Shown: positions 44,688-60,498, numbered from the stretch's first letter. The stretch is 64,000 nt of DNA from Candidatus Methylomirabilota bacterium (GCA_035464095.1 DATHSO010000081.1:604-64603); one strand, 5' to 3'. The notes: generated by a model not told the origin, from the letters alone. Numbers and translations are program-made.

Positions 44688-46346
44688 TCACGACTCCGCG
44701 CGCCTGGCGCGGGTCAGACCGTAGCTCTTGAGCTTCCGGTACAGCGTCGCCGAGCCGATCCCCAGCTGCTGGGCGGTGCGCGTCTGGTTGCCGCCGTTGA
44801 GCTCCAGCACCGCGATGATGTACTCCCGCTCGATTTCGTTGAGCGGCTGCACCGCCCCCCCGTTCACCACCGGCTTGGGGAACGCCTGGCGGATCTCCTC
44901 GGGCAGATCTTCGAGGTCCACGCGGCGCCCACGGGCGAGCGCCACGGCACGCTCCATGGCGTTCTCCAGCTCGCGCACGTTGCCCGGCCACTCGTAGCGC
45001 AGGAGCTGATCGACAGCACCCGGTGCGAGGCCTGAGATCTTGCGTCCCATTCGGATTGCCGCATCCGCGAGCAGGACCCGGGCGAGCGGCAGGATGTCTC
45101 CCCTGCGGTCGCGGAGCGGTGGAACGTCCAGCTCGACGACCTTGAGCCGGTAGTAGAGGTCCTGCCGGAAGCCGCCGTCTGCGACCCCGTGGGCGAGATG
45201 ACGATTGGTGGTGGCCAGGACGCGGACGTCCACCGGCCGGCTCTTGTTCTCCCCGACCCGGCGGATCTCCCGCTCCTGGAGCACCCGCAGGAGCTTGACC
45301 TGCATGCCCGGAGAGACCTCACCGATCTCGTCCAGCAGCAGTGTCCCGTGGTTGGCCGCCTCGAACAGGCCGGGCCGGTCCGACGACGCACCGGTGAACG
45401 CGCCGCGCGCGTGCCCGAACAGCTCACTCTCGAGCAAGGTCTCGGTGATGGCGGCACAGTTGACGGCGACGAACGGTCCGGCGGCGCGGGTCGACTCGTC
45501 ATGGACGAGGCGCGCGATCCGCTCCTTGCCGACCCCGCTTTCGCCGGTGATGAGCACCGTGGCATCGACCTTGGCCACGCGTCTCGCCAGGTCCACCACG
45601 TGCCGCATCTTCGCACTTTTCGCGACGATCCCGAGCGGCTCCTCCACGTCGCGCGCCACGCGGACCACCGCCTGGTGGTGCGCTCGGAGCTTCTCCTCAG
45701 CCGCCTTCAAGCTCTCCGTGACCCGGCTGAGTGAAACATCCAGGCACTCCTTGAGGCGCCCCGAGTCGAAGAAGGCGAGCTCCTCGGCGCGTTCGTCCCC
45801 CCACTCTTGGCGCGTGCGCGCGAGGAGGTGGCACGCCGCGTGGCCTTCGCCCAGACAGCGATCCTCGAGGACGTAGATCTCCTCTTCGTTGGTCCGGCTG
45901 AAGTAGCCGCTCATCAGGCCGCAGATGGTCCAGCACACTGCCGAATCGGAGCGGCCGAAGTGCAGCAGATGCTGCTCCGCCTCGTAGGATGCGAGCAGCA
46001 TCGCTCCCTTGTTGGAGAGCGGGTCCTCACTTCCAGGCTGGGCGCGGAAGAGGCCCTGGAGCGTGTAGATGCGGGAGCCGGCGCGACGCCATTCGTCGTT
46101 GCTCGCCCACGTGAACTCCTTCTGCATGGCCTCCGCCATTCGCCAGCCGTGGGCGAAGCCGAACTGGGTGAGCACCGCGCGGGCAGCGGCCCGGCCGAAG
46201 TTCTCGACCAGGTACCGCCGCAGCAGCCCCATGGCCACGGCATCGACCAGGAGGGCGCGCTGCCCGGCGAAACGGATCAGGCCCCCCTCGGGGTCGAGCT
46301 CCAGGAGCTCCTCGTGATGCAGATCCTCGATCCGCAGTGGCAACAC
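44688..46346 (-). CDS. Sigma-54-dependent transcriptional activator with XylR_N/V4R-type sensory N-terminus
   Basis: AAA+ core ([35 protein letters not shown]). C-terminal HTH ([24 protein letters not shown]). The N-terminal ~200 aa resemble the XylR/DmpR effector domain ([43 protein letters not shown]). Confidence 0.9.
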
Positions 46347-46362
46347 CTTTCATTTTGACGTT

Positions 46363-46391
46363 ACTTTACCTCATTTTGATCGAATCCACAA
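46363..46391 (-). promoter_or_regulatory. Candidate sigma-70 promoter of the activator gene (TTGTGG-N17-TAAAGT)
   Basis: Read on the minus strand in the AT-rich patch just upstream of GTG 46346. The same patch carries two direct TCATTTTGA repeats. Confidence 0.3.
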
Positions 46392-46401
46392 CCACGGGGC
46401 T

Positions 46402-46420
46402 CGTCTGCGTGACGCAGACG
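46402..46420. promoter_or_regulatory. Perfect 9+1+9 palindrome CGTCTGCGT-G-ACGCAGACG in the divergent control region
   Basis: Read directly. It lies 27 nt upstream of the -24 element of promoter P1 and just upstream of the candidate activator promoter. It could be an activator/repressor site or a hairpin. Confidence 0.4.
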
Positions 46421-46446
46421 CCTGCCAGCAGGCGCGCGATGGTCGG

Positions 46447-46462
46447 TGGCGAGGAGATTGCA
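46447..46462 (+). promoter_or_regulatory. Sigma-54 promoter candidate P1 (TGGCgaggagaTTGCA)
   Basis: Matches TGGCAC-N5-TTGCW at 12 of the 14 consensus-defined positions, including all of the TGGC and TTGCA cores, with exact GG-to-GC spacing. It lies 105 nt upstream of the radical SAM ATG and is adjacent to a divergent sigma-54 activator gene. Confidence 0.55.
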
Positions 46463-59302: not shown

Positions 59303-59438
59303 GCCCCCGAGACATTGGTCCGCCGCAGGCCGTCGCCTTCCCGGACCGACCGGCGGCTGACGTCATTTCGATCGATTCCACACCGGATGACGCCCGCCGG
59401 GCCGGCGCAAACGCAAGCAGCACCACGACATCCACTCA

Positions 59439-59454
59439 TGGCGGGGAATTTGCA
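59439..59454 (+). promoter_or_regulatory. Sigma-54 promoter candidate P3 (TGGCggggaatTTGCA)
   Basis: Exact GG/GC spacing with TGGC and TTGCA cores. It lies 37 nt upstream of ATG 59491. TGACGTCA (59358-59365) and TGACGCC (59388-59394) lie upstream. Confidence 0.5.
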
Positions 59455-59490
59455 AAGGTTTCGGTCTCAGTCCGAGGGAAAGAGGCCCCG

Positions 59491-59751
59491 ATGAGCACCG
59501 ACCCACCCACGACCGTGAAGCTCGGCGACCTGGTCGTCGTGGCCTTCGACTGGGCCGAGCAGCACGGCTCCGACGTGCGGGAGGTCCGGATCCTGGGCGT
59601 CAAGGCCGTCTCGTACCTCCTTCAGCGTGCCCGGACGACATCGCCCTCCCGTTCTGCGTCCGGTCTCCTGCCGTTGCCGGGCTCCCGTGAGCGGCTGGCG
59701 CTCGTGGAAGCCGGCCGCCGTCCCGGTGTGTCGGCCCCGATGAGCGGGTGA
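59491..59751 (+). CDS. Small hypothetical protein
   Basis: 86 aa. The first ~40 codons have near-100% GC3 (VKLGDLVVVAFDWAEQHGSDVREVRILGVKAV). The tail is less protein-like. No family recognised. Confidence 0.45.
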   Translation: MSTDPPTTVKLGDLVVVAFDWAEQHGSDVREVRILGVKAVSYLLQRARTTSPSRSASGLLPLPGSRERLALVEAGRRPGVSAPMSG

Positions 59752-59763
59752 AGGAGCGGGCCG

Positions 59764-60498
59764 ATGATCACGCTGCGCAGAGCCCAGGAGCGTCACCACG
59801 ACGGGCGCCGCAAGCAGCAGATCTGGCATACCTTCGGCCCGCACAACGGAGCAGGCCCGCTGGCCGCTGGCTTCGGGACCCTCGAGGGCATCAGCGAGCA
59901 GCAGCTGCCGCCGGGCGCAGTCTCTGCGGCCCATCCGCTCCAGGAAGCAGAGATCGTCACCTACGTCCTCAAGGGCGCACTGGCGCAGGAGGACTCGTCT
60001 GGAAGCTCCGGCGTCGTCCACGCGGGCGAGTTCCAGCGCATGACCGTCGGCCGCGGAATCCGCCACAAGGAGACCAACGCGTCACGGTCCGACTGGGCAC
60101 ACATCTTCCGGGTTTCCCTGCGGCCCGCGCAGGTGGGCCCTGATGCCGGTTGCGAGCAGAAACGCTTCGCGGCGGCACTGCGCCACAACGTGCTGTGCGT
60201 GGTCGCGTCCCCCGACGGGCGCAAGGGATCGCTGCGCATCCTCCAGGACGCCATCGTCCTCTCGAGCGTGCTCGACCCAGGACACCACATCGTCCACGAG
60301 CTGTTCCCGGGGCGGAGCGCCTGGCTCCACGTCATCAGCGGCGAGGCGACTCTGAACGACCTCGTCCTGACTCGAGGTGACGGCGTCGGCGTGACGGCCG
60401 AGCGCTCGGTGTCGCTCACAGCCACCGAGAGCACCGAGCTTCTGCTGGTCGACGTGGGCCCGCCGCCGCGGTCTTCTGCGACCGGGGTCGCACCATGA
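59764..60498 (+). CDS. Pirin-family protein
   Basis: ATG is preceded by GAAGGAG. Cupin metal region HPLQEAEIVTYVLKGALAQEDSSG..AGEFQRMTVGRGIRHKETN. Two-cupin length (244 aa). Confidence 0.85.
   Translation: MITLRRAQERHHDGRRKQQIWHTFGPHNGAGPLAAGFGTLEGISEQQLPPGAVSAAHPLQEAEIVTYVLKGALAQEDSSGSSGVVHAGEFQRMTVGRGIRHKETNASRSDWAHIFRVSLRPAQVGPDAGCEQKRFAAALRHNVLCVVASPDGRKGSLRILQDAIVLSSVLDPGHHIVHELFPGRSAWLHVISGEATLNDLVLTRGDGVGVTAERSVSLTATESTELLLVDVGPPPRSSATGVAP

Follow-up and report, generated by a model that had tools for sequence, protein, structure and literature searches.

Sigma-54 promoters with a shared upstream site at a cyclic beta-1,2-glucan synthase locus point to a probable dispersed proteostasis and envelope regulon under a XylR_N/V4R-type activator

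Promoters and a shared upstream site at the locus

The DNA analysed here, called the window below, is a 64,000-nt stretch (about 72% GC) from a Candidatus Methylomirabilota bacterium (GCA_035464095.1, DATHSO010000081.1:604-64603), and the locus in question occupies positions 44,688 to 60,498. It comprises the gene for an activator of sigma-54-dependent transcription and, divergent from it, genes for a radical S-adenosylmethionine (SAM) enzyme, a tetratricopeptide-repeat (TPR) protein, a cyclic beta-1,2-glucan synthase (Cgs), a small protein and a pirin, together with three sigma-54 promoters and candidate activator sites upstream of them (Table 1). An original prediction, made from the window sequence, had read these genes as one ligand-responsive module. 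The present analysis concerns their control, both in the window and in related loci, which carry numbers with the prefix L.

Table 1. Features of the locus, in window coordinates. PWM, position weight matrix; ORF, open reading frame; GC3, GC content at third codon positions.
Feature	Position	Strand	Basis or remark
Sigma-54 enhancer-binding protein, 552 aa: XylR_N/V4R sensor, AAA+ domain with GAFTGA, HTH_8	44688..46346	-	Pfam
Upstream activator site A of P1, putative, TCATTTTGA (TCAnnTTGA-type short palindrome)	46350..46358	+	Read from sequence; 21 bp upstream of site B
Upstream activator site B of P1, putative, TCATTTTGATCGA	46371..46383	+	76 nt upstream of TGGC
Sigma-54 promoter P1, TGGCGAGGAGATTGCA	46447..46462	+	Exact match and PWM; before radical SAM gene
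Class-B-type (B12-binding-like) radical SAM enzyme, 815 aa	46567..49014	+	Pfam B12-binding, Radical_SAM and DUF4070
Upstream activator site B of P2, putative, TCCTTTTGATTGA	49006..49018	+	75 nt upstream of TGGC; overlaps radical SAM stop codon
Sigma-54 promoter P2, TGGCATGGAGGTTGCA	49081..49096	+	Best PWM hit of the window, 18.5 bits
TPR-repeat protein, 417 aa	49213..50466	+	Pfam TPR families
Possible 43-aa ORF between TPR and Cgs, uncertain	50526..50657	+	Called as a gene on an identical public contig (L095)
Cyclic beta-1,2-glucan synthase (Cgs/NdvB/ChvB type), 2882 aa	50654..59302	+	GTG 50654; alternative ATG 50690
Upstream activator site B of P3, putative, TCATTTCGATCGA	59363..59375	+	76 nt upstream of TGGC
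Sigma-54 promoter P3, TGGCGGGGAATTTGCA	59439..59454	+	Exact match and PWM
86-aa protein	59491..59751	+	GC3 0.86
Pirin-family bicupin, YhhW ortholog, incomplete metal site	59764..60498	+	Pfam Pirin and Pirin_C_2

Both strands of the 64-kb window were searched with the promoter pattern TGGC-N7-TTGCW (TGGCNNNNNNNTTGCW), which yielded exactly three matches, P1, P2 and P3, all on the plus strand. Shuffled windows contained 0.46 matches on average, and two of 100 shuffles reached three. Each promoter is an exact TGGC-N7-TTGCA with its GG and GC doublets exactly 10 nt apart, and each lies just upstream of a plus-strand gene, 105 nt (P1), 117 nt (P2) and 37 nt (P3) before an ATG that is itself preceded by a GGAGG-type ribosome-binding site. 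The sites and distances given in the original prediction were reproduced, as was its statement that the other intergenic gaps hold no further correctly spaced match. The background check that it had proposed was run on the window with a sigma-54 PWM modelled on published compilations. P1, P2 and P3 scored 14.6, 18.5 and 14.3 bits and were the top three hits over both strands (128 kb), with 12.4 bits for the next best, and every weaker hit of at least 9 bits falls within a reading frame supported by GC3. A stop-to-stop classing of frames mislabels P1 and P2 as "coding-like", because open frames run upstream of the true starts, and it is informative for the weaker hits only. These results support the assignment of all three sites as genuine, if predicted, sigma-54 promoters. 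P2 is also flanked by a 22-nt imperfect inverted repeat (49062-49083 and 49106-49127, 77% complementary), with its -24 and -12 elements in the loop.

Ungapped alignment of the three upstream regions revealed conserved blocks at the -24/-12 elements, at a GACGCA-like block and at a 13-nt motif, TC(A/C)TTT(T/C)GAT(C/T)GA, that starts at a nearly constant distance from the promoter (76, 75 and 76 nt upstream of the TGGC of P1, P2 and P3). With at most one mismatch allowed, this motif, listed as site B in Table 1, occurs three times in the window, only at P1-P3, against 0.08 occurrences expected. As the motif was derived from these same three sites, the search is circular, and a real test needed other sequences. 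An extended form of site B, TACCTCATTTTGATCGA, is conserved in orthologous loci.

The cassette and its genes in related loci

Other sequences came from composite-pattern scans. The scan of species-representative genomes returned 34 loci, including six true relatives, all on metagenome-assembled genomes (MAGs) of Acidobacteriota (Thermoanaerobaculia, Ca. Sulfomarinibacteraceae, Holophagae and unclassified), and the scan of a metagenome collection returned 56 loci, about 17 of them relatives. Together with the window and with loci from protein look-up, these relatives gave 33 non-redundant cassettes of upstream site and promoter. L080 and most of the 34 genome-scan loci were set aside as chance matches. 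So were L039, L063, L091 and L093 (60% GC), where a coincidental motif stands near a receiver-type activator and potassium-transport (kdp-like) genes, the latter recognised by eye.

Across the 33 cassettes, site B takes the form (TAC)CTCATTTTGATCGA and stands 72-75 nt upstream of the TGGC (67 nt in one case), about 21 nt downstream of site A; a site A-like TCAnnTTGA is present in most of these promoters. The spacer of the promoter typically contains GGA, and an A-rich/ATCAWG block lies between site B and promoter. The signature of the cassette is site A, 21 bp, site B, about 62 nt and TGGC-N7-TTGC, which can be written as the pattern TCAnnTTGA-N12-TCAYTTYGATYGA-N60-64-TGGC-N7-YTGC. This signature is compact and searchable, so membership in the regulon can be mapped in any genome. 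The block between site B and promoter (…AATCAAGCG…) was considered as a site for integration host factor (IHF) and rejected, as it matches the WATCAANNNNTTR consensus incompletely, through an ATCAA core.

The closest long contig, L001, encodes a radical SAM enzyme 80% identical to that of the window and contains three exact promoter matches, compared with 0.25 expected. The window-derived motif stands 69-76 nt upstream of each of them, before groES-groEL, a pair of Band_7 genes and the radical SAM gene, and a fourth cassette with the promoter TGGCACGATGGCTGCT precedes small ORFs and Cgs. The gene order of this contig is groES-groEL, other genes, activator, two Band_7 genes, radical SAM, an M50-CBS protease, a gap, two small ORFs and Cgs. 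Counterparts of P1 stand before the radical SAM gene in L001, L023, L024 and L071, and the entire P2 region is conserved before the TPR gene in L011, L037 and L074. In L024, as in L001, Cgs has its own cassette of site and promoter. The radical SAM cassette of L001 (9670-9850) is a duplicate of the activator-proximal cassette (6830-6900) and carries with it a fragment of about 130 nt from the 5' coding end of the activator, with the two Band_7 genes between the copies. Cassettes appear to spread by local duplication.

The genes that come first behind the cassette are varied. The most frequent is groES-groEL, in seven cassettes, and pirin-groES-groEL follows one more, so that groES-groEL stands behind eight cassettes, all in relatives. 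Further cassettes lead to a protein of about 100 aa, named here for its "YSRSQIQNI" motif (six), to the radical SAM gene (five), the TPR gene (four), a Cys-rich secreted repeat protein (three), one or more small ORFs and Cgs (two), a small ORF and pirin (two) or the Band_7 pair (one). A CIRCE/HrcA operator before groES was looked for in relatives and dismissed, since L019 offered no more than a poor partial match and no match was seen in L001 or L007. In some cases a gene for a PAS-PAS-PP2C phosphatase comes after that for the "YSRSQIQNI" protein, in others DUF502 with a second groEL. Members of this family are about 90-116 aa long, share the motif …AHY..KDL.EAL.LY.GV.AA.P.T.EA.YSRSQIQNI… and lie directly behind the cassette in many lineages (L092 4278-4577; L079 428-694; and, on the minus strand, L096 6660-6968, L100 6565-6873 and L098 5252-5602). 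No Pfam family matched them above threshold, and no member was found in the window.

Orthologs of the activator, 75-92% identical, adjoin the cassette wherever the flank is long enough, and the gene on the opposite side varies, being TPR in L011, L037 and L074, radical SAM in L023 and L071 and groESL in L007. The radical SAM gene adjoins Cgs in L024 and lies 3.8 kb from it in L001. Radical SAM homologs of lower identity (61-64%, L003 and L004) have unrelated neighbours, and activator, Cgs and sigma-54 promoter were not found near them. The proposed check that activator, radical SAM, TPR and Cgs genes stay together in relatives came out in part, with some pairs neighbouring each other, the order shuffled and the distant radical SAM homologs unlinked. 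Pirin adjoins the orthologous activator or follows its promoter in L007, L019, L073, L081, L096, L098, L099 and L100. In L098 and L100 the activator faces pirin, with small ORFs between the two or beyond pirin, and in L099 the order is activator, radical SAM, pirin.

A search with the sensor domain of the activator alone found 445 relatives, the best 120 of which are 58-88% identical, and a few of these 120 are from MAGs labelled Planctomycetota, Proteobacteria or Chitinispirillaceae. In the last of these (L096, 51% GC) two cassettes, CATCATTCTGATTGA…TGGCGTGAAAATTGCT and CATCGTTTTGATCGT…TGGCCCGTTAATTGCG, stand divergent to the activator and lead to a 155-aa ORF and to the "YSRSQIQNI" family with pirin. 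Both the cassette and the association of activator with pirin are retained in this MAG and in those labelled Proteobacteria and Planctomycetota.

Activator, proposed regulon and alternative explanations

The divergent gene had been described as a sigma-54 activator with a GAFTGA loop, a C-terminal helix-turn-helix and a XylR_N/V4R rather than a receiver N-terminus, and each part of this description was confirmed. Pfam assigned XylR_N (E 1e-26, 92.8 bits), Sigma54_activat, AAA_lid_14 and HTH_8, with Walker A at residue 268 and GAFTGA at 315. The V4R model scored 27.6 bits, under its cut-off of 31, yet alignment of the domain with PoxR, MopR and DmpR extends through the zinc ligands; the NCBIfam MobR model gave 324 bits, with a cut-off of 999. 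A relative of 375 aa in L097 (8001-9128), between malonate decarboxylase genes and PqiA/MlaD-type genes, has the sensor, the AAA lid and the helix-turn-helix, lacks the sigma-54 interaction domain and may be a sigma-54-independent derivative or a pseudogene.

The first 200 residues of the window activator can be aligned to the sensor structures of PoxR, MopR and DmpR/CapR (E 1e-18 to 2e-15), and the Cys/Glu/Cys/Cys zinc ligands are conserved. In MopR, His106 acts as the phenol filter and the H106Y exchange turns the protein into a benzene sensor (PMC10598577, against which residue numbering was checked). The window activator has Tyr in place of this histidine, Leu in place of Trp134, like it a phenol anchor in MopR, Ala in place of Phe132 and two arginines in place of Phe99 and Met100. 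These replacements are invariant or nearly so in nine orthologs (the Tyr is Ser in two), and the sensor domain, at 81-90% identity among orthologs, is about as conserved as the AAA+ domain. Because the sensor is as conserved as the ATPase domain while its pocket has changed, a specific conserved signal other than phenol is likely. The two pocket arginines would argue against a purely hydrophobic ligand, and the trigger is probably a non-phenolic ligand or a stress-derived cue, the pocket being unlike those of aromatic sensors. The small hydrophobic or aromatic effector of the original prediction is therefore upheld as far as the PoxR/MopR/DmpR fold and the intact zinc site go, but not at the phenol anchors, which are replaced.

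We consider it probable that the locus belongs to a dispersed sigma-54 regulon for proteostasis and the envelope, controlled by the XylR_N/V4R activator, and is not a dedicated glucan pathway. The shared, conserved upstream site and the activator orthologs beside cassettes in relatives give good support to the earlier claim of one regulon under one activator. As the same activator and site stand before varied genes in relatives, co-regulation is supported and pathway coupling is not; shared control of the radical SAM enzyme and Cgs need not mean that one molecule is the substrate of both. The claim of a dedicated module coupling cyclic glucan synthesis to B12-radical SAM chemistry was not borne out, since the same cassette precedes groES-groEL, pirin and Band_7 genes and the gene order is shuffled. 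Activator, pirin, groESL and two families of small proteins seem to form the conserved core of the regulon, and among its targets the genes for chaperonin and pirin recur most often and most widely. Cgs, Band_7, the radical SAM enzyme, the TPR protein, the M50 protease and the PAS-PP2C phosphatase look like lineage-specific recruits. We read the locus as three units of this regulon that lie side by side by happenstance. With Cgs among the recruits, cyclic glucan synthesis would come under a stress-type sigma-54 switch in the window organism, and groESL would be expected under the same control elsewhere in its genome.

In the proposed mechanism, the shared upstream motif would be the binding site of the V4R-type activator, which would recognise a bipartite element, site A (TCAnnTTGA) followed at about 21 bp by site B (TCATTTTGATCGA), some 75 nt upstream of the -24 element. 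A signal at the zinc-containing sensor would then free the AAA+ domain to remodel the sigma-54 holoenzyme on TGGC-N7-TTGC, by analogy with XylR, DmpR and MopR. P1 would serve the radical SAM enzyme, P2 the TPR protein, possibly the 43-aa ORF, and Cgs, and P3 the 86-aa protein and pirin. Neither a sigma-54 or sigma-70 promoter nor a terminator match was found in the 187-nt gap after the TPR gene (50467-50653), so Cgs is probably read from P2, with TPR and Cgs presumably co-transcribed.

A broader proposition is put forward tentatively, at slightly less than even confidence: that the regulon is widely distributed in Thermoanaerobaculia-type Acidobacteriota, and possibly in MAGs labelled Fibrobacterota, Planctomycetota and Proteobacteria, and that the V4R sensor has been repurposed in it from catabolism to proteostasis and the envelope, where it would sense a new class of signal, such as a metabolite of membrane or protein damage, and not a growth substrate. 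Its targets would be GroES/GroEL, the metal-site-degenerate pirin, two conserved small proteins and, in the lineage of the window, cyclic beta-1,2-glucan synthesis and the B12-type radical SAM enzyme.

Other explanations of the locus were weighed against these observations. A dedicated ligand-responsive module, with radical SAM enzyme and TPR protein both acting on the cyclic glucan, or on an envelope lipid made together with it, in answer to a pathway-specific aromatic or hydrophobic effector, fits the co-oriented, contiguous genes under one control system in the window, and it gains from the closeness of the radical SAM and Cgs genes in L024 and L001. The radical SAM model is also nearest in structure to AprD4, an enzyme that acts on a sugar, although this resemblance is one of fold, at 19% identity. 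A module of this kind is hard to reconcile with the same activator and site driving groES-groEL, pirin, Band_7 and other unrelated genes in relatives, with TPR, radical SAM or groESL taking turns as the partner of the activator, with 61-64% identical radical SAM homologs that are neither beside Cgs nor behind sigma-54 promoters, and with a sensor from which the phenol-anchoring residues are absent. We regard it as unlikely.

It is also quite improbable that, with the promoters real, the TCATTTTGATCGA element is bound by another activator or by a nucleoid-associated or DNA-bending protein, so that the neighbouring XylR_N/V4R protein would have no part, or only a shared part, in the regulation. 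In favour of this, binding of the activator to the site is a prediction from sequence, a second activator gene lies 2 kb beyond pirin, and the further conserved A-rich/ATCAWG block between site and promoter means that several proteins probably bind. The element nonetheless stands in intergenic DNA, divergent from an ortholog of the activator, in every related locus with long enough flanks, including a 51% GC MAG assigned to another phylum; the receiver-type activator is unlinked in related loci, and the element, compared by eye, misfits the IHF consensus WATCAANNNNTTR. It is extremely improbable that so short and degenerate a pattern arose at the three promoters by chance in GC-rich DNA. Although two of 100 window shuffles also gave three matches, each match in the window precedes a gene start on its coding strand; together they take the top three PWM ranks, have a second motif in common at a fixed distance and are conserved at orthologous positions in many loci, which refutes chance as far as sequence can.

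Several points weigh against the dispersed regulon as proposed. It is predicted from comparative sequence, and the assignment of the site to the activator rests on their co-occurrence. The stress role is a reading of gene content (GroES/GroEL, Band_7 of the HflK/C class, a membrane protease, PP2C and a periplasmic glucan). No RpoN box was found in the 64-kb window, and rpoN is expected in the genome solely from the two GAFTGA-type activators in the window; groESL was not found in the window either, and its membership in this genome is extrapolated from relatives. No convincing site A was found at P3, and the 187-nt gap may hold a promoter for Cgs that went unrecognised. Site B lies about 100 nt upstream of the expected transcription start, a shorter distance than for XylR at Pu or DmpR at Po. 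The taxonomic labels of the non-acidobacterial MAG contigs are those of their depositors, and binning errors may be among them. The second sigma-54 activator, of the receiver (NtrC) type (62564-63937, minus strand), is a possible alternative regulator; no sigma-54 promoter matching it was found in the window.

V4R-type sigma-54 activators have wide use as biosensors and are known for switching the catabolism of hydrocarbons, phenols and alcohols. The window activator is built like XylR, DmpR, MopR and PoxR, with the domain order XylR_N-V4R, AAA+ with GAFTGA and HTH_8, a retained zinc site and a gene divergent from a target promoter with an upstream site. It departs from this class in two functional respects, as its effector pocket residues are replaced and its targets, together with those of its orthologs, are chaperonin, pirin and envelope genes and not a catabolic operon. 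The HsfA/HsfB-lonD system of Myxococcus xanthus is a sigma-54 heat-shock system whose HsfA belongs to the response regulators with a receiver domain and not to the V4R proteins. In the phage-shock regulon, a sigma-54 activator likewise drives a small dispersed set for envelope stress and membrane integrity, but PspF lacks a sensor domain and is under the control of PspA; none of the psp genes turned up here. Compared with the Cgs/NdvB/ChvB enzymes of Rhizobiales and Brucella, the window Cgs shows a near full-length alignment and the same domain set, and differs in its acidobacterial-lineage host and in its place behind a sigma-54 promoter (via TPR here, directly in L001 and L024). We know of no description of sigma-54 control of cgs.

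A survey of sigma-54 regulons predicts sigma-54-dependent chaperone genes in Bacteroidota and Planctomycetota, cites direct evidence for a few of them and does not mention Acidobacteriota (PMC12316311). Sigma-54 promoters before chaperone genes such as groES/groEL have thus been predicted and in a few cases demonstrated, and the principle is not new. What differs here is the phylum, an activator type and site drawn from comparative genomics, and the inclusion of Cgs. A literature search of incomplete coverage returned no paper on this activator group, its site or a sigma-54-controlled cyclic glucan synthase, and nothing relevant on RpoN with chaperonins in Acidobacteria or on pirin with XylR and groEL.

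If the proposed regulon is real, the V4R sensor class would extend beyond catabolism to chaperonins, pirin and the envelope, which would point to a new stress signal, and there would be a first handle on stress regulation in the largely uncultured Thermoanaerobaculia-type Acidobacteriota. It would also place a cyclic beta-1,2-glucan synthase under sigma-54 control outside the Rhizobiales and Brucella models, and it would make the 86-aa family, the "YSRSQIQNI" family and a metal-site-degenerate pirin candidate new components of a stress response.

Products of the locus and its flanks

The gene calls for the radical SAM enzyme and the giant Cgs hold by their Pfam domains, and that of Cgs also by alignment. 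The radical SAM gene has a ribosome-binding site and ATG that are conserved in L001, L023 and L024. Its family is large, with full-length homologs 57-96% identical among the matches listed. The CX3CX2C motif (C224/C228/C231) is invariant in 35 homologs, and the C-terminal 270 residues or so are conserved across the family without a Pfam match; no NCBIfam model reached its cut-off. The closest folds to an AlphaFold2 model (pLDDT 77) are AprD4, OxsB, CysS and MgmA. By domain set and fold, the protein is predicted to be a cobalamin-dependent class B enzyme that binds cobalamin; AprD4, the best structural match, carries the same domain and works without cobalamin. A role as a membrane-spanning-lipid synthase of the Mss/Tes type was dropped after sequence and fold searches of PDB gave generic class-B matches, no Mss/Tes sequence having been compared. 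The paper on Mss reports no mss homologs in Acidobacteria and describes no B12-binding domain (PMC13159169).

For the TPR gene, the original prediction stands except for its start, as the implied ATG at 49214 was off by one and the true ATG is at 49213. The N-terminus of the translated protein, judged by eye, is signal-peptide-like. The 43-aa ORF that follows has a GC3 of 0.86, and its stop codon overlaps the GTG with which Cgs begins, in the sequence GTGA. It is weakly similar to a 48-aa ORF upstream of Cgs in L001, and the 48-aa ORFs in this position in L001 and L024 are 60% identical to each other. Residues 16-2832 of Cgs align with the Agrobacterium tumefaciens enzyme (8rf0/8rf9) at 2371 bits, the cyclisation domain matches 8wy1, and Pfam assigned a Glycoamylase domain, two GH94 supersandwich domains and GH94. 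This is the domain set of the family, and cyclic beta-1,2-glucan is the predicted product.

The 86-aa protein has no Pfam or NCBIfam match and gave no tblastn match in the loci compared before L100. A 101-aa ORF of L100, located between the orthologous activator and pirin, shares 53% identity with it over 51 aa (E 6e-13), and this homology indicates a real gene. The earlier calls of a small protein and a pirin were accordingly retained, the latter with Pfam support. On the reverse strand of L073, an unrelated 74-aa ORF (MLDRLQNEGALADWENEGG…) takes the place of the 86-aa ORF between the cassette (4198-4286) and pirin. The pirin aligns with Escherichia coli YhhW (1tq5) at 142 bits over residues 1-233 and has Leu in place of His59, one of the N-terminal metal ligands, which we take to be His57, His59, His101 and Glu103. 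In the orthologs of L007 (4787-5506) and L019 (about 5990-6700), both His57 and His59 are apparently replaced, as read from the sequences. With metal-site histidines lost, quercetinase activity is doubtful, and the pirin family of the regulon may be non-catalytic.

Beyond the activator lie a minus-strand gene for a protein with a Trans_reg_C winged helix, BTAD and an alpha/beta-hydrolase (42006-43628) and a plus-strand PhzF-family gene (43669-44529), neither with a cassette. The right boundary of the locus is clear. The end of pirin at 60498 is followed by a convergent tRNA-Ala(GGC) (60632-60707, minus strand), for which the hairpin at 60596-60614 fits a terminator, and then by a selenocysteine tRNA (60795-60893, plus strand), so the organism probably uses selenocysteine. 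The 5' end of an ORF with DUF4388 (60666-61700) overlaps both tRNAs, and its true start must therefore lie further downstream.

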